Virus record (IMG/VR): IMGVR_UViG_2877973648_000003
Direction: 5' to 3' (one strand)
Length of the DNA stretch: 9,854 nt
From: a virus
Lineage: Duplodnaviria; Heunggongvirae; Uroviricota; Caudoviricetes
A program made the position numbers and the translations under genes. The notes under the pieces were generated by a model, which saw nothing but the letters and a program-made list of their open reading frames with translations, had not been told where the DNA came from and did no database searches. Shown piece by piece: positions 1 to 9,854 of this stretch. How positions within the stretch are numbered: position 1 is the stretch's first letter; each line of letters opens with the position of its first letter.

Positions 1-477
1 TTATTCAAGCAGGCTACGCAACATCCAGGCAGTTTTCTCATGTAACTGGATACGTTGTGTAAGCAGATCTGCTGTGGCTTCATCATTCGCATTATTAACG
101 AGCGGGAACAGGGAGCGTGCAGTTTTAACCACGGTCTCCTGGCCCTGGACAAGATTTTCAATCATGTTTTTTGCTGCCGGAATATCCTTATCTTCATTAA
201 CCGCTGTTAAACGTGAAAATTCATGATATGTGCCGGGCGCGAAGCATCCGAGCGAGCGTATACGTTCAGCGATATCATCAACGGCAGTGGCCAGCTCATT
301 GTATTGATTTTCAAACATTAAATGTAAGCTGTTAAACATGGGGCCAGTTACATTCCAGTGATAGTAATGTGTTTTTATATACAGGGTATAGGTGTCAGCA
401 AGAAGCCGGGACAGGCCGTCTGCAATCTCCACCCGGGATGATTCAGCAATACCAATATCAATGATTTGTTTACTCAT
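1..477 (-). CDS. Dps-family (ferritin-like DNA-protection) protein, 158 aa, apparently host-encoded
   Basis: Complete minus-strand ORF (ATG complement at 475-477, TAA complement at 1-3). The translation has the ferritin-like Dps signature region (HW-N-V-G...F...LH...E) and Dps-like length. SD-like AAGAGG lies upstream of the start. It is not identical to E. coli Dps as I recall it. Confidence 0.8.
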
Positions 478-551: not shown

Positions 552-566
552 AAATTTTTATAATAA
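552..566. other. attL core (lambda-type attachment site, host/prophage junction)
   Basis: AAATTTTTATAATAA followed by GTTGGCATTATAAAAAAGCATTGCTTATCAATTTGTTGCAACGAACAGG matches the recalled lambda attP core and P' arm (lambda core GCTTTTTTATACTAA). The left three bases differ, as expected for a host arm. One C-to-A difference lies in the overlap region (TTTATAA versus TTTATAC). Confidence 0.8.
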
Positions 567-574
567 GTTGGCAT

Positions 575-645
575 TATAAAAAAGCATTGCTTATCAATTT
601 GTTGCAACGAACAGGTCACTATCAGTCAAAATAAAATCATTATTT
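575..645. promoter_or_regulatory. attL P' arm: IHF-type site and Int arm-type binding sites (P'1-P'3)
   Basis: CAGGTCACTAT (612-622), CAGTCAAAAT (623-632) and AAAATCATTAT (about 634-645) fit the Int arm-type consensus. The upstream TTATCAATTTGTTGCAACGAACAGG resembles the lambda H' IHF site. The int stop lies 74 bp from the core, as in lambda. Confidence 0.75.
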
Positions 646-1710
646 GATTTCAATTTTGTCCCACTCCCTGCCTCTGTCATCACGATACTGTGATGCCATG
701 GTGTCCGACTTATGCCCGAGAAGATGTTGAGCAAACTTATCGCTTATCTGCTTCTCATAGAGTCTTGCAGACAAACTGCGCAACTCGTGAAAGGTAGGCG
801 GATCCCCTTCGAAGGAAAGACCTGATGCTTTTCGTGCGCGCATAAAATACCTTGATACTGTGCCGGATGAAAGCGGTTCGCGACGAGTAGATGCAATTAT
901 GGTTTCTCCGCCAAGAATCTCTTTGCATTTATCAAGTGTTTCCTTCATTGATATTCCGAGAGCATCAACATGCAATACTGTTGGGATGGCAATTTTTACG
1001 CCTGTTTTGCTTTGCTCGACATAAAGATATCCATCTACGATATCAGACCACTTCATTTCGCATAAATCACCAACTCGTTGCCCGGTAACAACAGCCAGTT
1101 CCATTGCAAGTCTGAGCCAACATGGTGATGATTCTGCTGCTTGATAAATTTTCAGGTATTCGTCAGCCGTAAGTCTTGATCTCCTTACCTCTGATTTTGC
1201 TGCGCGAGTGGCAGCGACAGGGTTTGTTGTTATATGGCCTTCAGCTATTGCCTCTCGGAATGCATCGCTCAGTGTTGATCTGATTAACTTGGCTGACGCC
1301 GCCTTGCCCTCGTCTATGTATCCATTGAGCATTGCCGCAATTTCTTTTGTGGTGATGTCTTCAAGTGGAGCATCAGGCAGACCCCTCCTTATTGCTTTAA
1401 TTTTGCTCATGTAATTTATGAGTGTCTTCTGCTTGATTCCTCTGCTGGCCAGGATTTTTTCGTAGCGATCAAGCCATGAATGTAACGTAACGGAATTATC
1501 ACTGTTGATTCTCGCTGTCAGAGGCTTGTGTTTGTGTCCTGAAAATAACTCAATGTTGGCCTGTATAGCTTCAGTGATTGCGATTCGCCTGTCTCTGCCT
1601 AATCCAAACTCTTTACCCGTCCTTGGGTCCCTGTAGCAGTAATATCCATTGTTTCTTATATAAAGGTTAGGGGGTAAATCCCGGCGCTCATGACTTCGCC
1701 TTCTTCCCAT
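640..1710 (-). CDS. int: Tyrosine integrase, lambda Int (356 aa)
   Basis: The translation is near-identical to lambda Int as I recall it (MGRRRSHERRDLPPNLYIRNNGYYCYRDPRTGKEF...REWDKIEIK) and has the catalytic R/K/H/R/H/Y residues including the LLGH and Y motif near the C-terminus. It overlaps xis as in lambda and is adjacent to the att site. Confidence 0.97.
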   Translation of the reverse strand: MGRRRSHERRDLPPNLYIRNNGYYCYRDPRTGKEFGLGRDRRIAITEAIQANIELFSGHKHKPLTARINSDNSVTLHSWLDRYEKILASRGIKQKTLINYMSKIKAIRRGLPDAPLEDITTKEIAAMLNGYIDEGKAASAKLIRSTLSDAFREAIAEGHITTNPVAATRAAKSEVRRSRLTADEYLKIYQAAESSPCWLRLAMELAVVTGQRVGDLCEMKWSDIVDGYLYVEQSKTGVKIAIPTVLHVDALGISMKETLDKCKEILGGETIIASTRREPLSSGTVSRYFMRARKASGLSFEGDPPTFHELRSLSARLYEKQISDKFAQHLLGHKSDTMASQYRDDRGREWDKIEIK

Positions 1711-1906
1711 TTCTGATCCTCTTCAAAAGGCTACCTGTTACTGGTCGATTTAAGTCAACCTTTACCGCTGATTCGTGGAACAGATACTCTCTTCCATCCT
1801 TAACCGGAGGAGGGAATATCCTGCACTCGCGTACCCATCGACGAACTGTTTCAAGGCTTCTTGGGCGTCGCTGGCGTGCGTTCCACTCCTGAAGTGTCAA
1901 GTACAT
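1688..1906 (-). CDS. xis: Excisionase Xis (72 aa)
   Basis: MYLTLQEWNARQRRPRSLETVRRWVRECRIFPPPVKDGREYLFHESAVKVDLNRPVTGSLLKRIRNGKKAKS matches lambda Xis in sequence and length. Its 3' end overlaps the int start. Confidence 0.95.
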   Translation of the reverse strand: MYLTLQEWNARQRRPRSLETVRRWVRECRIFPPPVKDGREYLFHESAVKVDLNRPVTGSLLKRIRNGKKAKS

Positions 1907-1930
1907 CGCAAAGTCTCCGCAATTACACGC

Positions 1931-1953
1931 AAGAAAAAACCGCCATCAGGCGG
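1931..1953 (-). terminator. Putative intrinsic terminator (5-bp GC stem CCGCC/GGCGG, 4-nt loop, then six Us on the minus strand)
   Basis: On the minus strand: GCCGCCUGAUGGCGG followed by UUUUUUCUU. The stop codon of the 55-codon ORF sits in the loop. The stem is short, so confidence is moderate. Confidence 0.4.
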
Positions 1954-2113
1954 CTTGGTGTTCTTTCAGTTCTTCAATTCGAATATTGGTTACGTCTGCA
2001 TGTGCTATCTGCGCCCATATCATCCAGTGGTTATAACAGTCGTTGATGTTCTCTGCTTCGATAACCCTGTTGAATGGCTCTCCATTCCATTCACCTGTGA
2101 CTCGGAAGTGCAT
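1946..2113 (-). CDS. Small hypothetical protein (55 aa), positional counterpart of the lambda small ORF next to xis
   Basis: Found by my own translation; it is below the size cutoff of the ORF track. MHFRVTGEWNGEPFNRVIEAENINDCYNHWMIWAQIAHADVTNIRIEELKEHQAA. Same size and position as the lambda 55-codon ORF right of xis. Confidence 0.6.
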   Translation of the reverse strand: MHFRVTGEWNGEPFNRVIEAENINDCYNHWMIWAQIAHADVTNIRIEELKEHQAA

Positions 2114-2124
2114 TTATCATCTCC

Positions 2125-2151
2125 ATAAAACAAAACTCGCCGTAGCGAGTT
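2125..2151 (-). terminator. Putative intrinsic terminator downstream of the 142-aa gene
   Basis: On the minus strand: AACUCGC-UACG-GCGAGUU (7-bp stem) followed by UUGUUUUAU. It lies between the stop of the 142-aa ORF (2197) and the start of the 55-codon ORF (2113). Confidence 0.5.
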
Positions 2152-2196
2152 CAGATATAATTTCCACCAAAGGCAGTAGTTGCTTGATGCTAAGAA

Positions 2197-2625
2197 TTAT
2201 TCAATATCTATTCCTGTAATCTCTTTTATCTTTTTCCTTGCAAAGCCTTTTGCTAGTGATTTTGAAACACTCATAAGTGTACTAATTCCCTCATCCTTAA
2301 AGTTTGTTTTTATAGCTTGCCAGACATCCTTTTGACGTAAGTCAGCAATAAAATCATGCCCTCTTGCTGTCAACCTCAGTGGTACTTCGATCCAACTATA
2401 TCCAACACCTTCCCCTAACGCTTTGGACAATATATGACCGAACCCAGGTTTTCCATCAACCCTGACTATTAATTCGTAGTCACATAATAATCGCATATGG
2501 AAAATAAAATCTTGGTCATATCTATTAAAGCCATTATCCTCTAGTTCACTAAGCATCGTGTCAGGGCCACGAGTTTTTTCGAATGCGATAAGTAGATCTT
2601 TTAGATATTGCTGGTCTAATTTCAT
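2197..2625 (-). CDS. Hypothetical protein, 142 aa, AT-rich accessory (moron-like) gene of unknown function
   Basis: Clean ORF with a strong SD (GGAGGCG) 5-7 nt upstream of the ATG. Base composition is visibly more AT-rich than the flanking lambda-like genes (by eye, not computed). No signal peptide or TM segment is evident. I do not recognise the family with confidence. Confidence 0.6.
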   Translation of the reverse strand: MKLDQQYLKDLLIAFEKTRGPDTMLSELEDNGFNRYDQDFIFHMRLLCDYELIVRVDGKPGFGHILSKALGEGVGYSWIEVPLRLTARGHDFIADLRQKDVWQAIKTNFKDEGISTLMSVSKSLAKGFARKKIKEITGIDIE

Positions 2626-2635
2626 TGCCGCCTCC

Positions 2636-2647
2636 GTGACATGTCAC
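2636..2647. promoter_or_regulatory. Perfect 12-bp palindrome GTGACATGTCAC in the 28-bp gap between the 112-aa and 142-aa genes
   Basis: Read directly from the sequence: the motif equals its own reverse complement. It sits just upstream of the SD of the 142-aa gene. Confidence 0.35.
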
Positions 2648-2653
2648 AGAGAT

Positions 2654-2992
2654 TTATATCATTAATTTTGTTTCGTGCCAGCCTTTGGTCACCCAGCATT
2701 GTGAGTCACCATTACACGGGCATGAATTAACAGGAACTCTCTCGCCGCACTTACCGCACCGTTTTCTGCTGATCGATTTTATACGCCAGCGCACACGTGC
2801 ATCATCCTGGCGGCTCAGTAACGCGATGTACTCACCAAACTCGCAAGGCGCACGCCTGAAGCGACGCGTGGCACAGTTACGCTCCAGCATTTCAATTTCC
2901 TGAGCATCAAGTACAAGCTCCAGCTTACGCATACCGGATGATGCTTGCTTGGCTCTCTGATCGGCTTTGTGCTCTGTTGCTGATTTAGCCAT
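2654..2992 (-). CDS. Small basic Cys-rich protein (112 aa), probable zinc-ribbon; occupies the position of lambda ea8.5
   Basis: ORF with an SD-like AGGAAAA upstream. The C-terminal part has CGKCG...CPC...C spacing typical of a zinc ribbon. Base composition resembles the lambda-like backbone. Any identity with Ea8.5 is positional inference only. Confidence 0.55.
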   Translation of the reverse strand: MAKSATEHKADQRAKQASSGMRKLELVLDAQEIEMLERNCATRRFRRAPCEFGEYIALLSRQDDARVRWRIKSISRKRCGKCGERVPVNSCPCNGDSQCWVTKGWHETKLMI

Positions 2993-3188
2993 TCTGCTTT
3001 TCCTGCATCAGGAGAAAGACAATCATGGCGGCGCGGATACTTCCGGTATCTTTATACGCGATATTCCCCTTCAATGGCACATACAAGAAGAGAGCCATCA
3101 ACAGGAGTGATTGAGGAATCGACAACCAGCAACGCTTAATTATCTATAGTGTCGTATTTGCTTCATAAAATATGGCGAATAACACAAA

Positions 3189-3220
3189 GCCCGCAGCAGC
3201 TCATTGTGCGGGCTTTTCTT
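3189..3220 (-). terminator. Putative bidirectional intrinsic terminator (GCCCGCA...TGCGGGC, 7-bp stem) downstream of the secreted-protein gene
   Basis: Stem 3189-3195 pairs with 3207-3213 around an 11-nt loop. It is followed by TTTTCTT on the plus strand and UUUGUGUU on the minus strand, about 70 nt past the stop at 3286. Confidence 0.55.
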
Positions 3221-3285
3221 ATACCTACTTCCTAGAGATAATTCTATGGAGGCATTAAATCAATACTGTCATTGGTAATATCATA

Positions 3286-3900
3286 TTATCTAAAAGTCTT
3301 TCCACTTTTAACATCTAGGTATATTCTGTTCGACAACGTCATTCCTCCGCAATATGTGAAATAGATGTTTTCACCCTTATTGCTTGATGCCATCCACCCT
3401 CCGATTTCCTTAAAATCGCTTTCCGTGCAGACCCCTTCATTTATTAACTTCCTAGCTGCCGAAGAAAACTCTTTTTTGTATATACGGTAGTCATCAGATC
3501 CTTTGATTAAAGTATCATCTCCGCTCGCATTTTCAGCAGGATCTGATGGCCTTTCACTGCTAAGATCACTAAATTTAACCCATTCTGAAAACTTGCCATT
3601 AACGATTCCATTTTTTCTTGTGCAGGATTTATTACCTTCTTTAATATATTCGCTTTCCCCTCCAACACATGAGGCTGAATATGGCTCAGTTATACGAACC
3701 CATTCACCTTTTTTTTCTAGAAAATCTACGCCTTCCCTGAAAAATAGTTTCCCAGCCACTCCACATTTACTTGAAGGGCAGGTATGTCTTTCCGTTCGAT
3801 CAACAACAACCCATAGTTTTGATTCATTTTTTGCCATTGCCGATGGTATTTGAGATGAGACAATTAACGTAAGCCCTAAAATTAGTATTGATTTTTTCAT
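3286..3900 (-). CDS. Secreted or periplasmic Cys-rich protein, 204 aa, unknown function (AT-rich moron)
   Basis: N-terminus MKKSILILGLTLIVSSQIPSAMA-KNE is a classical Sec signal peptide with an AXA cleavage motif. The mature part is hydrophilic with about 8 Cys. SD AAGGAAA lies 6-7 nt upstream of the ATG. The gene is AT-rich and has its own terminator. It does not match Bor, Lom or Cor as I recall them. Confidence 0.7.
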   Translation of the reverse strand: MKKSILILGLTLIVSSQIPSAMAKNESKLWVVVDRTERHTCPSSKCGVAGKLFFREGVDFLEKKGEWVRITEPYSASCVGGESEYIKEGNKSCTRKNGIVNGKFSEWVKFSDLSSERPSDPAENASGDDTLIKGSDDYRIYKKEFSSAARKLINEGVCTESDFKEIGGWMASSNKGENIYFTYCGGMTLSNRIYLDVKSGKTFR

Positions 3901-4198
3901 TGTAATTTCCTTTTACTTTTTACAAAGCGTTTAATCATGGCTGATTATCTCTAAGTGTAGTAACAGCCTTGTGCGAAACATGTTACCAAATCGCCATTTC
4001 AGTGTATCCGCAGTTAGGCTGCCACTTCAAGGATTCCTAATTACATGGTACGTAAGCGTAAAATCCCGTTGGTTGGCGGGTAATAACTCTGATCAAATCT
4101 CCCTTGTCTTTTGCTCTTACGTATGCAGCTCTTGTGTATTCAACCCAGGCCTCCAGTTCAGCAATACGCTTACTTCCATCCGAGATAACACCTTCTAC

Positions 4199-4450
4199 TC
4201 ACGCTGCTCGTTGAGTTTTGATTTTTGCTGTCTCCAGCTCAACACGCAGTTTCCCCACCGTTAGCGCAATATCCTCGTTCTCCTGGTCGCGGCGTTTGAT
4301 GTATTGCTGGTTTCTTTCCCGTTCATCCAGCAGTGTCAGCACAATCGATGGTGTTACCAGCTCATGGAAAAGGTCCGCGTCAAATCCCCAGTTGTCAGGC
4401 ATTGCCTGCTCTGCCGCTTCACGCAGTGCCTGAGAGTGAATTACGCTCAC
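4199..4450 (-). CDS. ea22: Ea22-like protein, N-terminal segment (83 aa) ending at an in-frame TGA; the reading frame stays open for 53 further codons (4040-4198) to a TAG at 4037-4039
   Basis: MSVIHSQALREAAEQAMPDNWGFDADLFHELVTPSIVLTLLDERERNQQYIKRRDQENEDIALTVGKLRVELETAKIKTQRAA resembles the lambda Ea22 N-terminus as I recall it. After the TGA, the same frame reads VEGVISDGSKRIAELEAWVEYTRAAYVRAKDKGDLIRVITRQPTGFYAYVPCN. Its 3' end overlaps the start of the TraR-like gene. Confidence 0.55.
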   Translation of the reverse strand: MSVIHSQALREAAEQAMPDNWGFDADLFHELVTPSIVLTLLDERERNQQYIKRRDQENEDIALTVGKLRVELETAKIKTQRAA

Positions 4451-4668
4451 TTCGAACCTCTCTGTTTACTGATAAGCTCCAGATCTTCCTGGCAACTTGC
4501 ACAAGTCCGACAACCCTGAACGGCCAGGCGTCTTAGCTCATCTATGGGATCGCCACACTCACAACAATGAGTGGCAGATACAGCCTGGTGGTTCAGGCGG
4601 CGCATTTTTATTGCTGTGTTGCGCTGTAATTCTTCAATTTCTGATGCTGAATCAATGATGTCTGCCAT
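4447..4668 (-). CDS. DksA/TraR-family C4 zinc-finger protein (73 aa), lambda Orf73/TraR-like
   Basis: 73 aa with paired Cys-x2-Cys motifs (CCEC ... CRTCASC) and the size typical of TraR-family proteins. It sits where lambdoid phages carry their TraR homologue in the early-left operon. Confidence 0.75.
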   Translation of the reverse strand: MADIIDSASEIEELQRNTAIKMRRLNHQAVSATHCCECGDPIDELRRLAVQGCRTCASCQEDLELISKQRGSK

Positions 4669-4766
4669 CTTCCATTAATCCCTGAATTGTTGGTTAATAC
4701 GCTTGGGGGTAAATGCGAGCAATAAAAAAGGAGCCTGTAGCTCCCTGATAATTTTGCTTTTCATGT

Positions 4767-5048
4767 TCATCGTTCCTTAAAGACGCCGTTTAACATGCCG
4801 ATTGCCAGGCTTAAATGAGTCGGTGTGAATCCCATCAGCGTTACCGTTTCGCGGTGCTTCTTCAGTACGCTACGGCAAATGTCATCGACGTTTTTATCCG
4901 GAAACTGCTGTCTGGCTTTTTTGATTTCAGAATTAGCCTGACGGGCAATGCTGCGAAGGGCGTTTTCTTGCTGAGGTGTCATTGAACAAGCCCCATGTCG
5001 GCAAGCATAAGCACACAGAATATGAAGCCCGCTGCCAGAAAAATGCAT
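4767..5048 (-). CDS. Small early-left-operon protein (lambda orf61-like); start ambiguous (93 aa from 5048, or 71 aa from the ATG at 4982)
   Basis: ORF in the expected position and orientation. The 5048 start lies 10 nt after the upstream gene stop and has no obvious SD. The internal ATG at 4982 overlaps the TGA of a 5-codon upstream mini-ORF (ATGA), a translational-coupling arrangement. Confidence 0.5.
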   Translation of the reverse strand: MHFSGSGLHILCAYACRHGACSMTPQQENALRSIARQANSEIKKARQQFPDKNVDDICRSVLKKHRETVTLMGFTPTHLSLAIGMLNGVFKER

Positions 5049-5058
5049 TCAGTGGTTG

Positions 5059-5250
5059 TCATACCTGGTCTCTCTCATCTGCTTCTGCTTTCGCCACCAT
5101 CATTTCCAGCTTTTGTGAAAGGGATGCGGCTAACGTATGAAATTCTTCGTCTGTTTCTACTGGTATTGGCACAAACCTGACTCCAATTTGAGCGAGGCTA
5201 TGTGCCATCTCGATACACGTTCTTAACTCAACAGGAGATGCTTTGTGCAT
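5059..5250 (-). CDS. Small early-left-operon protein, 63 aa (lambda orf63-like)
   Basis: 63-aa ORF with a G-rich SD (GGGGGG) upstream. Size and position match lambda orf63. Confidence 0.6.
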   Translation of the reverse strand: MHKASPVELRTCIEMAHSLAQIGVRFVPIPVETDEEFHTLAASLSQKLEMMVAKAEADERDQV

Positions 5251-5368
5251 ACAGCCCCCCGTTTATTATTTATCTCCTCAGCCAGCCGCTGTGCTTTCAG
5301 GGGATTTCTGATAACAGAAAGGCCGGGAAATACCCAGCCTCGCTTTGTAACGGAGTAGACGAAAGTGA

Positions 5369-5593
5369 TCGCACCTACCGGAAACAACGCGCGGCGCTCT
5401 TTACTCGTTCGTCTATAACGTGGGCGCAGGCAATTTCAGAACATCTACTCTTCTTCGCAAAATAAACCAGGGCGATATCAAGGGCGCATGTGACCAGCTA
5501 CGTCGCTGGGCATACGCTGGCGGTAAGCAATGGAAAGGCCTGATGACTCGTCGTGAGATTGAGCGTGAGGTCTGTTTGTGGGGGCAACAATGA
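5369..5593 (+). pseudogene. 3' remnant of an endolysin gene (T4-type/P21-type lysozyme R); N-terminal catalytic part absent and frameshifted upstream
   Basis: In-frame translation ...[71 protein letters not shown] matches the C-terminus of E. coli cryptic-prophage lysozymes as I recall them. There is no start codon. An in-frame TGA at 5366-5368 and a shifted frame lie upstream. The stop overlaps the Rz start (ATGA). Confidence 0.75.
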
Positions 5594-6054
5594 GCAGGGT
5601 AACCGCGATTATCTCCGCTCTGGTTATCTGCATCATCGTCTGCCTGTCATGGGCTGTTAATCATTACCGTGATAACGCCATTACCTACAAAGCCCAGCGC
5701 GACAAAAATGCCAGAGAACTGAAGCTGGCGAACGCGGCAATTACTGACATGCAGATGCGTCAGCGTGATGTTGCTGCGCTCGATGCAAAATACACGAAGG
5801 AGTTAGCTGATGCGAAAGCTGAAAATGATGCTCTGCGTGATGATGTTGCCGCTGGTCGTCGTCGGTTGCACATCAAAGCAGTCTGTCAGTCAGTGCGTGA
5901 AGCCACCACCGCCTCCGGCGTGGATAATGCAGCCTCCCCCCGACTGGCAGACACCGCTGAACGGGATTATTTCACCCTCCGGGAACGACTGGTAATGATG
6001 CAGGCCCAACTTGAAGGTGCTCAGCAATACATAACCGAGCAGTGTTTAAAGTAA
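5590..6054 (+). CDS. Rz: Spanin, inner-membrane subunit Rz (154 aa)
   Basis: [60 protein letters not shown]... matches lambda Rz as I recall it, with an N-terminal TM segment and coiled-coil region. The ATG overlaps the endolysin stop. The ORF track's longer 5578 start is an in-frame GTG upstream. Confidence 0.9.
5810..5995 (+). CDS. Rz1: Spanin, outer-membrane lipoprotein subunit Rz1 (61 aa), embedded in the +1 frame of Rz
   Basis: [24 protein letters not shown]... has a lipobox (VVGC) and a proline-rich mature part. It is fully nested inside Rz in another frame, as in lambda. Confidence 0.85.
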
Positions 6055-6191
6055 AATCTTAACTACAATATGATTCATTTTGATGATTGTTTCATAAGGA
6101 ACAGTGAAGTAAGATCTAAGAGGAGTTAAATTTTATACAGTATAATCATAATATTGCAGCAAGGTGGTTATAATTGAAAGAATATTTAGAT

Positions 6192-7649
6192 ATGAATACA
6201 TCTCATGTAAGAGTTGTTACTCATATGTGTGGGTTCCTGGTTTGGCTCTATAGTCTTTCAATGTTGCCACCAATGGTTGTAGCATTGTTTTATAAAGAAA
6301 AAAGCCTGTTCGTTTTCTTTATAACTTTCGTTATATTTTTTTGCATTGGTGGCGGAGCGTGGTATACAACTAAGAAATCTGGCATTCAATTACGTACCCG
6401 TGATGGGTTTATTATAATTGTAATGTTTTGGATTTTGTTTTCTGTTATTAGTGCATTCCCTTTATGGATTGACTCAGAACTTAATTTAACGTTCATTGAT
6501 GCTCTGTTTGAAGGGGTTTCTGGAATAACAACAACAGGAGCAACTGTAATTGATGATGTTAGTTCATTACCTCGGGCATATTTGTACTATCGGTCACAGT
6601 TAAATTTTATAGGTGGTTTAGGAGTTATTGTTCTGGCGGTTGCTGTATTGCCATTATTGGGTATTGGTGGTACAAAGCTTTATCAGTCAGAAATGCCGGG
6701 GCCATTTAAGGATGACAAACTCACTCCCCGCCTGGCCGATACGTCACGGACACTGTGGATAACTTATTCTTTATTAGGTATTGCTTGTATTGTCTGTTAT
6801 AGACTTGCAGGAATGCCTTTGTTTGATGCTATTTGTCACGGGATTTCCACAGTTTCGCTTGGTGGTTTCTCAACTCATAGCGAGAGTATCGGATATTTTA
6901 ATAACTATTTGGTTGAGCTGGTGGCTGGTTCTTTTTCCCTGCTATCGGCTTTCAACTTCACTCTTTGGTATATTGTTATTAGCAGGAAAACGATAAAACC
7001 TTTAATCAGAGATATTGAACTTCGTTTCTTTCTGTTAATAGCCTTAGGGGTGATCATTGTTACCTCTTTCCAGGTCTGGCATATAGGTATGTATGACTTG
7101 CATGGAAGTTTTATTCATTCGTTTTTTCTTGCCAGCTCCATGCTCACTGATAATGGTTTAGCTACGCAGGATTATGCAAACTGGCCCACGCACACGATAG
7201 TGTTTTTGCTGTCGTCAAGTTTCTTTGGGGGATGTATAGGTTCAACTTGTGGTGGAATTAAGTCACTTCGATTTCTTATACTTTTCAAACAAAGCAAACA
7301 CGAGATAAATCAGCTTTCTCATCCCAGAGCGTTGTTGAGTGTAAATGTAGGAGGGAAGATAGTTACAGATCGTGTAATGAGGTCTGTATGGAGTTTCTTT
7401 TTTCTTTATACTCTCTTCACGGTGTTTTTTATACTGGTGTTAAATGGTATGGGATATGATTTTCTTACATCATTTGCAACAGTGGCTGCATGTATTAATA
7501 ATATGGGATTAGGTTTTGGGGCTACTGCATCGTCATTCGGAGTGCTTAATGACATTGCAAAATATTTAATGTGCATAGCTATGATTCTTGGTCGCCTTGA
7601 AATTTATCCTGTTATTATATTGTTTTCAGGTTTTTTTTGGCGCTCCTAA
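6192..7649 (+). CDS. trkG: TrkH/TrkG-family potassium uptake protein (485 aa from the ATG at 6192; the ORF track extends to a TTG at 6174)
   Basis: Polytopic membrane protein with the repeated GxGG-type selectivity-filter segments (FEGVSGITTTGATV, STVSLGGFSTHSES, GSTCGGIKSLR, ACINNMGLGFGATASS). It is near-identical to E. coli TrkG as I recall it. The gene is AT-rich and lies immediately downstream of Rz/Rz1, the same arrangement as in the Rac prophage. Confidence 0.9.
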   Translation: MNTSHVRVVTHMCGFLVWLYSLSMLPPMVVALFYKEKSLFVFFITFVIFFCIGGGAWYTTKKSGIQLRTRDGFIIIVMFWILFSVISAFPLWIDSELNLTFIDALFEGVSGITTTGATVIDDVSSLPRAYLYYRSQLNFIGGLGVIVLAVAVLPLLGIGGTKLYQSEMPGPFKDDKLTPRLADTSRTLWITYSLLGIACIVCYRLAGMPLFDAICHGISTVSLGGFSTHSESIGYFNNYLVELVAGSFSLLSAFNFTLWYIVISRKTIKPLIRDIELRFFLLIALGVIIVTSFQVWHIGMYDLHGSFIHSFFLASSMLTDNGLATQDYANWPTHTIVFLLSSSFFGGCIGSTCGGIKSLRFLILFKQSKHEINQLSHPRALLSVNVGGKIVTDRVMRSVWSFFFLYTLFTVFFILVLNGMGYDFLTSFATVAACINNMGLGFGATASSFGVLNDIAKYLMCIAMILGRLEIYPVIILFSGFFWRS

Positions 7650-7734
7650 TATATGGCTGATTTATAATTGTGAGTTTAATATTATATTGACTCACTCATT
7701 GATCCAATACCTAACTTTACCAGCAACACCTCCG

Positions 7735-7770
7735 CCCCCAGTAGCACTGGCTGCTGGGGTGCGTTTTATT
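7735..7770 (+). terminator. Putative intrinsic terminator downstream of trkG
   Basis: CCCCAG...CTGGGG stem (7736-7741 pairing with 7754-7759) followed by TGCGTTTTATT. The loop is long at 12 nt, so confidence is modest. Confidence 0.35.
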
Positions 7771-7786
7771 CATAAAGCAAGGCTGT

Positions 7787-8218
7787 ATGAGCGAGAAATT
7801 AAAGATAGTCTATCGCCCATTACAAGAATTGTCACCGTATGCGCACAACGCCAGGACGCACAGTACTGAGCAGGTGGCACAACTGGTAGAAAGTATTAAG
7901 CAATTCGGCTGGACTAATCCGGTGCTGATTGACGAAAAGGGCGAAATTATTGCGGGTCACGGTCGTGTTATGGCGGCTGAAATGCTCAAAATGGATTCTG
8001 TTCCGGTCATTGTTCTGTCTGGCCTGACGGATGAGCAGAAAAAGGCGTACCGCCTGGCAGATAATCGCCTACCGATGAATGCTGGCTGGGATGAAGATCT
8101 GTTGCGGATGGAGCTGTCGGACCTAATCAATGCTGATTTTGATGTCTCCCTGACAGGCTTCGGCCCGACAGAAATTGATGAACTGTTGACGGATGTTTTG
8201 CCCGGTATCGGGCCTTAA
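7787..8218 (+). CDS. ParB-like nuclease-domain protein (143 aa), probably a C-terminally truncated fragment
   Basis: N-terminal ParB/Srx-type domain (YRPLQELSPYAHNARTHS...IIAGHGRVMAA...YRLADN). Its TAA stop lies 3 bp from the convergent tfa stop with no terminator between them. Prophage ParB-like proteins are usually larger. Confidence 0.65.
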   Translation: MSEKLKIVYRPLQELSPYAHNARTHSTEQVAQLVESIKQFGWTNPVLIDEKGEIIAGHGRVMAAEMLKMDSVPVIVLSGLTDEQKKAYRLADNRLPMNAGWDEDLLRMELSDLINADFDVSLTGFGPTEIDELLTDVLPGIGP

Positions 8219-8221
8219 TTT

Positions 8222-8749
8222 TTACTCTGGTTTTTGTGGCCATTCAGGATTTGCCGTATCCACACGGCTGACCAGAACACTGTAGCGTTCCCATGCTTCC
8301 AGTCGTGTGCGTTCCTCGTCTGTTGCCATATTCAGCCTGACAGCGCGTTCCAGCGGTTGGATGACTGATTCAGCTTCGGAAAGCAATGCGGCCTTTTGTG
8401 ATTCGGCCTGTTGTTGTTGCTCGTCTGCCGTATAAATCCGTTTAACCACAGCTCCGTCCCTAAACATCCACTTACTGGAATCATCAGCGCAGCGGTTGGC
8501 TGTAATATCTGGAACCTCAACGACGCTATAACCTTCAGGGTTAAGCGTGGAGGCATCTTTGGTGATGGCGACAATAATATTATTTGCATCGTAAACAATC
8601 TTTATTGTGTCTGGCTGAAAGTTTTTCACTTCCTCATACCAGTTTTTTCCGTCTTCGGACCATAACCAGATAACATCAAAATTCTTTGTTAGCTGATATT
8701 GTTCTTTTGTTTTTGGATTTCCAGACTTAATATTTTTTAAATGCTGCAT
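8222..8749 (-). CDS. tfa: Tail fibre assembly protein Tfa (175 aa)
   Basis: Tfa-family translation. It lies directly downstream of the tail-fibre cassette with a 3-nt gap, the typical stf-tfa arrangement. Confidence 0.85.
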
Positions 8750-8752
8750 AAA

Positions 8753-9715
8753 TTACACCTGTACGACGTTATACCATGTGCCATTGATGTATTTTTGTAT
8801 TGGTCTGAATACTGCCGGATCATCGCCATCAACTGCACCGATAATGCCAAGCCCCGTAATTGCATGACCTGATTTCTCATACATCACGCCTTTTTGCATA
8901 GTCTGAACAACACGTGTACCAAGTCGGACATCTCTCACATAACGTGAGTCAAAATTACCATAATTGCCGGGAATAACTTGCGCACCGCAAAGCCAGTTGC
9001 CATTGTTGTCCATGTACGCCTGACCATCGGTGCCATTGGCTGTCCTTGAGTTATTAATCATGTAGATGCCAAATTGCTTATTCCCCAGTCCACCAATCAT
9101 AAATTTGCGATCAGCGTGGTCCTGACGAAGTAATGCCTGCGCACCATCGGTGGATACCGCATTGCGTCCCAAAATAACATTCTGGTCACGCATATGAATC
9201 CACATGCCGGTACTACTGTTAATTGCAAAACGGTTTGCAAATATATCCCCTGTAACATCAAGACCATGCCCCATGCTTATCCGACCAGTTCTGAGATTAA
9301 GCGTAAAGGGGCGTAGTGGCCCTATATCACCATTTTCTCCCTCATTCTCTCGTGTAGGGATGATATGCAGGCATTCTTCAGAACGACGAAAAATAGCACC
9401 AAAAGATGAATTAAATATCCTCAGTGCATTGACTGTCGATATTTTTACTTCACTGCTGAAAAGGGCTTTAACAAGGACAGACAAAGCATCCCATTTAAGA
9501 GTCATCAGGTCTTTTGTTGTGGTGCTCTGGCGGCTTCTCCATTTGAAATATTCATTGCCGTTGTCGCCTGTTTCAAACCACATGTATGAATCAGTGTCGC
9601 TGTCGGCATTATTTTTAAAACCAATCTTTGCCCAGTCAGTATTTCTAATCCAGGCAAGGATTGAGTCGTTTTCAAAAGTAAGCCCACCGGACAAGGTATC
9701 GCCATTCTTTTGCAC
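8753..9715 (-). CDS. stf: Side tail fibre C-terminal variable cassette (320 codons), without its own N-terminal constant region
   Basis: Tail-fibre-like C-terminal sequence (NGDTLSGGLTFENDS..., Gly/Asn/Thr-rich). The open frame begins at a GTG (9713-9715) only 10 codons after an in-frame TAA that lies inside the crossover site. It is immediately adjacent to the pix-like site and tfa follows. This is the Sv'-U' arrangement of Gin/Pin/Cin invertible segments. Confidence 0.8.
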   Translation of the reverse strand: MQKNGDTLSGGLTFENDSILAWIRNTDWAKIGFKNNADSDTDSYMWFETGDNGNEYFKWRSRQSTTTKDLMTLKWDALSVLVKALFSSEVKISTVNALRIFNSSFGAIFRRSEECLHIIPTRENEGENGDIGPLRPFTLNLRTGRISMGHGLDVTGDIFANRFAINSSTGMWIHMRDQNVILGRNAVSTDGAQALLRQDHADRKFMIGGLGNKQFGIYMINNSRTANGTDGQAYMDNNGNWLCGAQVIPGNYGNFDSRYVRDVRLGTRVVQTMQKGVMYEKSGHAITGLGIIGAVDGDDPAVFRPIQKYINGTWYNVVQV

Positions 9716-9739
9716 GGCGTTCCTGGCCCTGTTTACCGT

Positions 9740-9765
9740 TTCCTGTAAACCGAGGTTTTAGATAA
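9740..9765. other. Gin/Pin/Cin/Hin-family DNA invertase crossover site (gix/pix-like)
   Basis: TTCCTGTAAACCGAGGTTTTAGATAA is a near-exact match to the recalled gix site TTCCTGTAAACCGAGGTTTTGGATAA. It consists of imperfect inverted 12-bp half-sites around a central dinucleotide and lies between the fibre cassette and the invertase start. Confidence 0.75.
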
Positions 9766-9819
9766 TGGCGGTTTCTGGCCTGCATGGCATGATTTGTGCT
9801 TTTGGACGGGAGATTCAGC

Positions 9820-9854
9820 GTGCTGATTGGCTATGTAAGGGTATCAACAAATGA
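9820..9854 (+). CDS. pin: Serine DNA invertase (Pin/Gin family), first 11 codons only; continues beyond the window
   Basis: GTG-CTG-ATT-GGC-TAT-GTA-AGG-GTA-TCA-ACA-AAT translates to (M)LIGYVRVSTN, the conserved N-terminus of Pin/Gin/Hin invertases including the catalytic Ser region. SD GGGAG lies 7 nt upstream. The TGA formed by the last three bases of the window is out of frame. The call rests on very little sequence. Confidence 0.6.
   Translation, partial: MLIGYVRVSTN

Follow-up and report, generated by a model that had tools for sequence, protein, structure and literature searches.

Genes and signals of the trkG cassette

The window, the whole stretch of 9,854 nucleotides analysed here, carries an intact trkG gene for a K+-translocating Trk subunit on the plus strand (6192-7649, 485 aa from the annotated ATG at 6192). 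The overall reading frame spans 6174-7649 (+), and residues 46-489 of its 491-aa product cover positions 3-500 of the 502-position Pfam TrkH model PF02386, a full-length match (E = 8.9e-144; score 480 bits, cut-off 27). A TTG start at 6174 with a strong Shine-Dalgarno sequence was rejected in favour of the annotated ATG, because the six codons it would add are little conserved in Escherichia albertii, where 4 of 15 nucleotides differ, mostly non-synonymously. An identical protein is already named trkG in RefSeq (WP_001393986.1). A sequence-only reading of this DNA had claimed a complete TrkG-type gene, and comparison with TrkG of E. coli K-12 (b1363, P23849), from the cryptic prophage Rac, bears this out, with 481 of 485 residues identical (99.2%; 4 aa and 7 nt differ), 41% identity to TrkH in an alignment, and intact P-loop glycines. 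The gene is the well-studied E. coli TrkG, an ordinary gene of which the location alone is mildly unusual.

TrkH proteins (E. coli b3849 and Vibrio parahaemolyticus 3PJZ and 4J9U) belong to the same PF02386 fold family, of the SKT superfamily, and have the same four M1-P-M2 repeats, and the two V. parahaemolyticus TrkH (VpTrkH) structures match TrkG residues 7-485 (E = 3.8e-121). The P-loop motifs TTTG116A, LGG225FS, DNG322L, and NMG439LG align with those of VpTrkH and E. coli TrkH, and the selectivity-filter glycines G116, G225, G322, and G439 are all kept, so that alignment of the filter reveals no inactivating change that would refute the assignment. The D3M2 intramembrane gating loop FFGGCIGSTCGGIK (343-356) aligns with VpTrkH FIGGCAGSTGGGMK, and the D4M2 arginine, in GR468LE, with GRLE of VpTrkH. 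Also kept are D121, E231, and D327, acidic residues close to the filter that have been implicated in Na+ dependence (PMC9898762). Besides its low identity, TrkH differs from TrkG in being encoded by a core gene of native GC (0.53).

Three replacements in the window allele, A161T, S330N, and L341S, are lineage-specific and all derived, as judged by comparison with K-12, KH_005, the 683R6 prophage, and E. albertii; Y458 is the E. albertii state, K-12 having C458. These replacements could have impaired or altered the protein, making the allele a cryptic pseudogene without a stop codon, as S330N is located 3 residues from D327 and L341S adjoins the conserved intramembrane loop. Such a change is, however, very improbable: each of the three positions holds more than one residue across TrkH and TrkG proteins (A/M at 161, S/R/D at 330, and L/C/F at 341), no filter glycine or acidic residue is altered, nor is R468 or the loop, and the reading frame runs its full length through AT-rich DNA, in which a stop codon is easily gained.

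The gene is found in a low-GC island that coincides with 6055-7770 (GC 0.372), against 0.451 in the rest of the window outside the island and 0.52 and 0.50 in its neighbours, Rz and the ParB-like gene. The earlier claim of a composition unlike that of the host agrees with the values for trkG, GC 0.380 (38%, as in K-12) and GC3 0.325, compared with 0.529 +/- 0.032 and 0.563 +/- 0.053 in 17 E. coli chromosomal flank genes used as host reference, which places trkG about 4.5 standard deviations lower in GC. An origin of the AT bias in the amino-acid content of membrane proteins is ruled out by E. coli trkH (GC 0.531, GC3 0.626), the bias of trkG being at synonymous sites.

Upstream of trkG there is an AT-rich spacer of 137 bp (6055-6191, +; GC 0.255), which presumably holds its own promoter, although a promoter scan of the spacer gave consensus-level matches not above those in shuffled sequence. 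The spacer is identical to that of K-12, where trkG also has the same neighbours; the region 5749-6310, spacer included, has no nucleotide difference from K-12, and about 85% of the spacer is conserved in E. albertii despite different flanks. The gap between trkG and the ParB-like gene contains an intrinsic terminator-like hairpin followed by a T-run (7736-7769, +; hairpin at 7736-7759), with a 10-bp stem of which 7 pairs are G-C, then TGCGTTTTAT; the hairpin is also kept in K-12. For structured RNAs, no Rfam family reached the gathering score across the whole window.

Rac-type, lambda-type and plasmid modules

The gene is directly preceded by a full-length Rz (i-spanin; 5590-6054, +; PF03245, E = 3.7e-53), which shares 96-97% aa identity with Rac-type Rz, and by Rz1 (o-spanin lipoprotein; 5810-5995, +; PF06085, E = 2e-19), which lies inside Rz in another frame and is 100% identical in aa sequence to rzoR-type copies. 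Before them remains the 3' third of an R-type endolysin, a pseudogene (5375-5593, +) that covers only profile positions 78-125 of Pfam Phage_lysozyme and is annotated in RefSeq as rrrD, incomplete. The gene that follows trkG is a truncated ParB/Srx-like gene of the ynaK type (7787-8218, +; PF02195 ParB_N), encoding 143 aa here and 263 aa in a full-length prophage. The arrangement known from Rac, which had been recognised from the sequence, is therefore present, with Rz/Rz1 ending at 6054 immediately upstream, the ParB-like gene downstream, and 99.3% identity over 2431 bp between window 5610-8040 and the rzpR/rzoR-trkG-ynaK region of K-12 Rac.

The homology to K-12 Rac is limited to these positions. 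The Rac early region (recET, racC, kilR, sieB, racR, and ydaS-W) is lacking in the window, as is intR, and the prophage is not at ttcA; instead of a Rac-type IntR integrase at ttcA/ttcC, it has lambda Int. Rz is truncated in K-12 Rac and full length in the window, the ParB-like remainder has 87 aa in K-12 and 143 aa in the window, and trkG is carried by the Rac prophage in K-12 and by a plasmid here. A match is also found in a full-length Rac-type prophage at ttcA, which shares 98.7% identity with window 5376-8207 and in which trkG sits between S-R-Rz and ParB-terminase. The left deletion joint, at 5379/5380, marks the loss of everything from exo to S together with the 5' portion of R, and 21 of the 5426 complete E. 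coli genomes have it; the right joint is located at about 8207, where identity to ON470595.1 stops. Q, pR', and the immunity region are missing from the remnant.

To the right of this joint, the window continues with an unrelated tail-fibre module, formed by a tail-fibre assembly gene (8222-8749, -; PF02413, E = 4.8e-37) and the C-terminal fragment of a tail-fibre gene, a pseudogene (8753-9754, -; PF21446; in RefSeq a phage tail protein with the N-terminus missing). Tail-fibre regions of other phage-like plasmids match positions 8200-9765 at about 92-93% identity. The last feature is the start of a Pin-type invertase fragment (9820-9854, +; RefSeq recombinase family protein, incomplete), which is interrupted by IS26 about 75 bp past the window end.

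The left part of the prophage is of lambda type, and window 555-5382 shares 99.9% identity with phage Chlobot (PP925838.1) and 97.6% with lambda, the Chlobot identity stopping at 5379/5380. It comprises the attP P' arm (567-639), identical to lambda from the first post-core base to the int stop codon, an intact integrase (640-1710, -; 356 aa) and an intact excisionase Xis (1688-1906, -; 72 aa, 1 difference from lambda Xis). The integrase differs from lambda Int by H164P, A245V, and I248V and keeps the catalytic set R212, K235, H308, R311, H333, and Y342. Lambda/Chlobot-type early-left accessory genes follow at 1946-5379 (-), which by RefSeq annotation and Chlobot identity are DUF2513, an ea22-like pseudogene, TraR/DksA, DUF1382, and a truncated DUF1317 (orf60a). 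Neither Chlobot nor lambda carries trkG.

Unlike Int, Xis, and the P' arm, which are in essence those of lambda, the att core of the window is a hybrid between lambda and a plasmid secondary site. The core AAATTTTTATAATAA (552-566), which forms the junction between this site and the lambda P' arm, shares 11 of 15 positions with the canonical 15-bp lambda core GCTTTTTTATACTAA, so that of the lambda-type int/attL described earlier, the integrase stands with its three aa differences and the attL is not the canonical lambda one. Outside the prophage, positions 1-477 (-) hold a plasmid-backbone gene of the Dps family (ferritin-like; PF00210, E = 2.1e-29; also Dps family in RefSeq), and the ArsR-Dps flank is common to 191 PLSDB plasmids. 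Plasmids without the remnant match the window flank up to 566 and then diverge; their empty core-like site on the Dps side, AAATTTTTATAATAAC, agrees with attB at 12 of 16 positions, in register. A Tn3-family inverted repeat is located 1 bp past the core-like site in these "empty" plasmids, which complicates reconstruction of the original target.

Conjugative plasmids of the IncF/IncHI types in E. coli, Klebsiella, Enterobacter, and Citrobacter carry identical copies of the remnant. In a few E. coli chromosomes, among them those of strains E2, S43, and ABW_S38, the same remnant occupies attB-lambda, flanked by ybhC on one side and ybhB/bioA on the other; there it keeps the canonical core GCTTTTTTATACTAA, has canonical attL and attR cores 11.6 kb apart, and is 99.9-100% identical to the plasmid copies. 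The chromosomal right end (pin'-tfa'-diguanylate cyclase-attR) is found in no PLSDB plasmid, and all plasmid copies end at IS26 within about 126-152 bp; the attR side being lost in every plasmid examined, the left junction is the one that bears on Int-mediated integration. The window is plasmid-type DNA and not the chromosomal attB-lambda locus; both this locus and Rac itself are ruled out by the plasmid context and the hybrid att core. The plasmid location and the hybrid secondary-site core were both absent from the sequence-only reading.

The association of the same cargo with a different integration module is borne out by lambda Int and Xis in the window and by the attB-lambda copies in chromosomes. 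The modular exchange proposed with it is supported by a less deleted attB-lambda prophage in strain KH_005, deleted independently of the window lineage, in which a single attL-attR pair encloses lambda int as well as Q, lysis genes, trkG, ParB, and part of a Rac-type terminase.

Distribution and selection of trkG

The trkG gene is dispensable, because 71% of the complete E. coli genomes lack it, 1551 genomes being trkG-positive, and some copies are disrupted (one IS1 insertion, one truncation, and one degenerate Shigella copy). Ten phage-database records have a TrkG of 99% identity or more; all are partial prophage regions, none being a free phage, and the two examined include host genes. TrkG homologues in Enterobacterales grade from 79%, 77%, and 76% down to 61%. 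Among them are paralogues of the TrkG clade in E. fergusonii (79%), a Pectobacterium-like species (76%), Enterobacter (70%), Buttiauxella (68%), and Morganella (62%), which share TrkG length and domain and are clearly closer to TrkG than TrkH is. Unlike trkG, those examined are chromosomal and none is beside phage genes; their GC ranges from 0.42 to 0.57, none being as AT-rich as trkG. A scan of species-representative genomes and a search of 5.8 billion proteins identified no donor of the AT-rich gene.

In K-12, TrkG is functional and expressed though Rac is uninduced and has no functional late operon, and TrkA-dependent K+ uptake activity is experimental for the K-12 allele only (PMC9898762). 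K-12 TrkH is Na+-independent and TrkG is Na+-dependent, and growth is supported better by TrkH (PMC9898762). The low GC of trkG, its prophage location, its partial repression by H-NS, and its Na+-dependent K+ uptake are already published (PMC9898762), and this K-12 work covers all the trkG biology that the sequence-only reading had put forward for checking.

The comparison of trkG with the E. albertii allele gives dN/dS = 0.05 at dS = 0.92, a near-saturated synonymous distance. The reading frame is intact in four independently decayed contexts, K-12 Rac, the window lineage, KH_005, and an E. albertii island, and in these four decay histories the deletion end-points lie within about 0.4-0.8 kb either side of trkG and none inside. 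Long-term purifying selection and survival of four decay events make domestication, as suggested before, plausible; it has indirect support from the dN/dS value, the four intact remnants, and the published function, and may extend to the window allele. Relaxed constraint is possible for this allele, because in its lineage only 1-3 synonymous changes are found beside the three replacements.

The gene could instead be a neutral hitch-hiker, intact only as the remnant is young and deletions are yet to extend into it, with its presence on plasmids due to selection on other plasmid genes and not on K+ uptake. This less probable explanation draws on the 99.9-100% identity of plasmid and chromosomal copies, which implies recent spread, on the rarity of the remnant (21 of 5426 genomes), on the absence of trkG from many E. 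coli genomes and its occasional disruption, on silent changes (1-3) that do not exceed replacements (3-4) in the window lineage, and on the better growth of K-12 with TrkH than with TrkG. It fits poorly with a dN/dS of 0.05 across such a distance, with four sets of deletions that stop short of the gene, and with a TrkG that works and is expressed in K-12.

It is unlikely that trkG is chiefly a phage-fitness gene, for instance one that offsets K+ loss or changes membrane potential during infection or lysis timing, its retention in remnants being a leftover and not host domestication. The position of trkG directly after the lysis cassette, in Rac-type prophages with complete packaging and morphogenesis genes, favours such a role. 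So does its tight linkage to the phage backbone: a chimeric query made of the Rz 3' end and the ParB 5' end found the same two alleles adjacent without trkG in 0 of 5426 E. coli genomes, at megablast sensitivity. Yet trkG has its own AT-rich spacer and terminator and is expressed in uninduced K-12, where the Rac late operon is non-functional; it is retained after the loss of holin, endolysin, Q, and every structural gene; and the homologues nearest to it (62-79%) are ordinary genes of chromosomes, not of phages.

As no empty Rz-ParB junction is found, a sister phage does not define the insertion boundaries of the cassette. In this trkG is unlike phage morons, the autonomous cargo cassettes of which lambda bor and lom are examples, as is sitABCD at the right-hand end of prophages of the Rac type, and its own promoter is here only presumed. 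Like them, it has a composition unlike its flanks, sits between conserved late-region genes with a terminator-like hairpin of its own, and, as known in K-12, is expressed from a repressed or defective prophage.

Proposed origin and significance of the locus

Considered with the observed identity and integrity of the gene, its composition, the module boundaries, and the hybrid att junction, the locus is best read (probability about 0.8) as a trkG cargo cassette in a mosaic lambdoid remnant that was excised and then integrated by Int into a conjugative plasmid. The cassette would be a self-contained cargo of AT-rich spacer, reading frame, and terminator, and its slot in Rac-type lambdoid phages would lie between Rz/Rz1 and the ParB-like gene that precedes terminase. 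The remnant most likely descends from a mosaic lambdoid prophage that resided at attB-lambda, in which the deletions at 5379/5380 and about 8207 would have fused the Rac-type R'-Rz-trkG-ParB' block to the lambda/Chlobot-type attL-int-xis arm and to the unrelated tail-fibre fragment, leaving about 9.4 kb in the window. This decayed element, bounded by attL and attR and with intact Int and Xis, was most likely excised, and Int would have recombined it into the core-like secondary site beside the Dps-family gene of a large conjugative plasmid, from which IS26 would afterwards have removed the right end of the insertion. Expression of Int in the remnant is puzzling, because pL and cII are deleted, and a helper phage may have been needed.

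By analogy with K-12, trkG would depend on a promoter of its own and not on phage late transcription, and would be partly repressed by H-NS/StpA. The protein is expected to form a dimer in the inner membrane, each protomer having four M1-P-M2 repeats around a glycine-lined pore, probably gated by the host TrkA ring. Its K+ uptake would be Na+-dependent, and it may serve as back-up or extra capacity for TrkH.

A bolder reading, to which we give little credence, is that the remnant of about 11.6 kb is still mobile and that, having left attB-lambda and entered a secondary att site of a conjugative IncF/IncHI plasmid through Int, it has carried TrkG, an E. coli-specific Na+-dependent transporter, to Klebsiella, Enterobacter, and Citrobacter as selected cargo. 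The settings would then be wastewater and clinical.

At the level of the gene the importance is small, since trkG biology is published and the exact sequence is already trkG in RefSeq. The locus is an example of cargo cassettes that outlive their phages, four independent decay histories having spared trkG, and of lambdoid re-assortment, the partner of Rz-trkG-ParB being IntR at ttcA and lambda Int at attB-lambda. The modest new twist is that a transporter-bearing fragment of a defective prophage has reached conjugative plasmids, apparently via a secondary att site, and that the plasmids carrying it now circulate among several enterobacterial genera. If trkG aids fitness on these plasmids, this would be a hand-over of a physiological gene from phage to plasmid.

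The trkG gene and its product

A single long ORF lies at 6174-7649 (+ strand) of the window, and translation from its annotated ATG at 6192 gives a protein of 485 aa, a full-length match to the Pfam TrkH profile (E = 8.9e-144). In all records containing the window, the RefSeq annotation of this sequence is trkG (WP_001393986.1). The gene differs from E. coli K-12 trkG by 7 nucleotides and its product by four residues (A161T, S330N, L341S and C458Y), while identity with K-12 TrkH is 41%. The alignment with the Vibrio parahaemolyticus TrkH structures (3PJZ/4J9U) spans TrkG residues 7-485 (E = 3.8e-121). All four pore-loop glycines (G116, G225, G322 and G439) are kept in the alignment, so the damage to the selectivity filter that was looked for is not found. 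Also kept are the intramembrane loop FFGGCIGSTCGGIK, the conserved R468 and three acidic residues (D121, E231 and D327) that were tied to the Na+ dependence of TrkG in a 2022 study (PMC9898762). With its full length and intact pore features, the gene is a complete member of the TrkH/TrkG family, as the sequence-only reading had proposed.

The derived changes of the remnant lineage are A161T, S330N and L341S (window 6672, 7180-7181 and 7213). S330N lies three residues away from D327, one of the positions linked to Na+ dependence, and L341S adjoins the intramembrane gating loop. A strong Shine-Dalgarno motif, AAGGTGG, is found 6 nt 5' of an in-frame TTG (window 6161-6191), which is 18 nt upstream of the annotated ATG, and 491 aa is the length called for many homologues. 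The ATG is favoured because the six codons between the two starts are poorly conserved in E. albertii.

The AT-biased composition also holds. GC content is 0.372 in the interval 6055-7770, 0.380 in the trkG ORF (GC3 0.325) and 0.255 in the 137-bp spacer upstream of it, and 0.52 and 0.50 in Rz and the ParB-like gene, respectively. For comparison, seventeen genes of the E. coli chromosome on the flanks of a related locus have GC 0.529 +/- 0.032 and GC3 0.563 +/- 0.053, and trkH has 0.531 and 0.626. The trkG bias is about 4.5 SD from these flanking genes and is located at synonymous sites; published figures are 38% versus 53% (PMC9898762).

Rac-type neighbours and the lambda-type arm

Rz (5590-6054), with Rz1 embedded in it (5810-5995), ends one base short of the AT-rich island, and upstream of Rz an R-type endolysin gene is reduced to its final third (5375-5593). 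Between trkG and a truncated ParB/Srx-like gene (7787-8218) there is a strong terminator-like hairpin (7736-7759) followed by a T-run. The K-12 Rac segment rzpR/rzoR-trkG-ynaK is 99.3% identical to window 5610-8040, which agrees with the Rac arrangement claimed for trkG directly after Rz/Rz1. No nucleotide differs over 5749-6310, therefore the entire trkG upstream spacer is K-12 sequence.

Window 5376-8207 is matched at 98.7% by ON470595.1, a record submitted as "phage" that contains a full-length Rac-type prophage at ttcA. In it the undamaged order is Q, tRNAs, S, R, Rz/Rz1, trkG, ParB (263 aa), terminase, portal and coat, which places trkG after the lysis cassette and before the packaging genes, the classic position for cargo. 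ON470595.1 and ON032529.1, a second trkG-carrying "phage genome" record, represent prophage regions plus chromosomal DNA on their flanks rather than virion genomes, and the phage collection gave no clean evidence of packaged phages carrying trkG. Positions 1-14278 of the former include the host genes abgABT through ttcA, and positions 28143-35262 of the latter include sitABCD, uspF, ompN and ydbK.

Outside the trkG block the element is of non-Rac type. Over window 555-5382, identity is 99.9% with the lambda-like phage Chlobot, whose genome lacks trkG, and 97.6% with lambda. Int differs from lambda Int by three residues and retains the catalytic R-K-H-R-H-Y set, Xis differs by one residue and the P' arm is identical to that of lambda; a lambda-type integration module is indeed combined with Rac-type cargo. 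Two minus-strand ORFs of this arm are also AT-rich, one for a DUF2513 protein (2197-2625, GC 0.366) and one for a protein of 204 aa (3286-3900, GC 0.379) whose N-terminus resembles a signal peptide and for which RefSeq reports no Pfam hit. Both occur in Chlobot, replacing lambda ea8.5/ea22, and are likely additional cargo genes.

Identity with Chlobot ends at 5379/5380, within orf60a, where the endolysin fragment starts, and identity with the Rac-type ParB gene ends at about 8207. Judged from these two breaks, the element is a remnant shaped by two internal deletions. Absent from the window are Q and all immunity, replication, holin and structural genes. The inverted tail-fibre assembly gene, tail-fibre C-terminal fragment and Pin-type invertase stub beyond the second joint (8222-9854) are the remains of an invertible tail-fibre host-range switch, which IS26 truncates about 75 bp past the window end.

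Chromosomal and plasmid copies of the remnant

The remnant occurs with identical joints in several E. coli chromosomes, between ybhC and ybhB/bioA, the lambda attachment site. These copies keep the canonical core GCTTTTTTATACTAA at attL and again at attR, 11.6 kb further on (11998 and 23638 in copy L003). Since int and xis are intact too, excision of the remnant may still be possible. Between the tail-fibre remnant and attR, these copies also carry a sensor diguanylate cyclase gene (L003 21666-22997), a second physiological cargo gene that the plasmid copies have lost. Strain KH_005 carries a less severely deleted relative at attB-lambda, in the order lambda int-xis, orf60a', IS3 fragment, ylcG, quuD, porin gene, essD, rrrD, Rz, trkG, ynaK', Rac-type terminase fragment and IS1. 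Its left deletion end-point is about 20 bp short of that of the window, therefore the decays are independent. Comparison of these copies indicates as parent a mosaic lambdoid prophage at attB-lambda, in which lambda Int and the Rac-type trkG/packaging region were already joined, in line with the proposed modular exchange.

The window copy itself is plasmid DNA, which the sequence-only reading overlooked. It is matched at 100% identity by IncFIB/IncHI1B conjugative plasmids some 300 kb in size and by plasmids from K. michiganensis, K. quasipneumoniae, E. kobei, E. roggenkampii and C. freundii. The full-length matches labelled chromosomal sit in integrated plasmid segments with repA, parDE and IS26. 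The left 554 bases of the window comprise a Dps-family gene and its flank, and are part of an ArsR-Dps module present in 191 PLSDB plasmids (Klebsiella, Escherichia, Citrobacter, Enterobacter and Raoultella). Besides the Dps-family gene, this module (window 1-477; 8816-12477 in record L002) includes genes for a divergent ArsR/SmtB regulator, an FAD-dependent oxidoreductase and a methyltransferase, and about 190 enterobacterial plasmids have it at 99% or higher.

In plasmids without the remnant, the flank is identical up to window 566 and is followed by C and a Tn3-family inverted repeat (7253-7300 in plasmid L031). The window att core AAATTTTTATAATAA (552-567 region) matches the lambda core at 11 of 15 positions, and the plasmid site matches attB in register at 12 of 16, for which we estimate a chance of roughly 1e-4 at an arbitrary junction. 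The crossover is confined to 563-567, at the right-hand margin of the 7-bp overlap. The claimed lambda-type int/attL thus stands for int and the P' arm, but the core is a hybrid, part lambda and part plasmid secondary site. In the most economical reading, the already-decayed element would have excised from attB-lambda, with Int/Xis of its own or from a helper phage, and integrated at the plasmid secondary site, and its right end would later have been lost to IS26. No plasmid examined retains the attR side, therefore the secondary-site route rests on one junction.

Origin, frequency and proposed domestication of trkG

The TrkG clade consists of second Trk transporters widespread in Enterobacterales, with identities of 79% (E. 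fergusonii), 77% (Citrobacter), 76% (Pectobacterium-like), 73% (Pantoea), 70% (Enterobacter), 68% (Buttiauxella), 62-66% (Serratia), 62% (Morganella) and 61-64% (Xenorhabdus). The contexts examined are chromosomal and non-phage, and GC ranges from 0.42 (E. fergusonii and a Pectobacterium-like contig, both AT-rich islands) to 0.57 (Enterobacter, native). No homologue examined in the clade is equally AT-rich, and no donor was found. E. albertii NBRC 107761 provides a third context for trkG (92% protein identity to E. coli, GC 0.384; L012 7800-11600), a small island flanked by copCD and rsmF, where its neighbours are an NleF-like effector gene and a fragment of a phage-type phosphatase and where Rz and ParB are absent. 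About 140 bp upstream are conserved with E. coli trkG, and homology stops at the stop codon.

Of 5426 complete E. coli genomes, 1551 have trkG at 99% identity or more, with few exceptions in one copy; 15 copies are plasmid-borne, and the orf60a'/R' joint of the remnant is confined to 21 of the 5426 genomes. K-12 TrkG is expressed, with only partial repression by H-NS/StpA, works with host TrkA and can substitute for TrkH (PMC9898762). The suggested domestication is favoured by this function, by the E. coli and E. albertii alleles (dS = 0.92, dN = 0.045, dN/dS = 0.05) and by four independent decay histories, whose deletion end-points come within about 0.4-0.8 kb of trkG and in no case enter it. 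Against it, trkG is an accessory gene and some copies are disrupted. In the window lineage, three derived replacements stand against 1-3 silent changes, counts too small to test selection. Domestication of the window allele is plausible on these comparisons.

The original observation is real and its interpretation essentially correct, and trkG is here a well-characterised, already annotated gene in a predictable kind of mosaic. The one modestly new point is that conjugative plasmids appear to have captured a defective lambda-type remnant, trkG included, at a secondary site; these plasmids have taken it into other genera.
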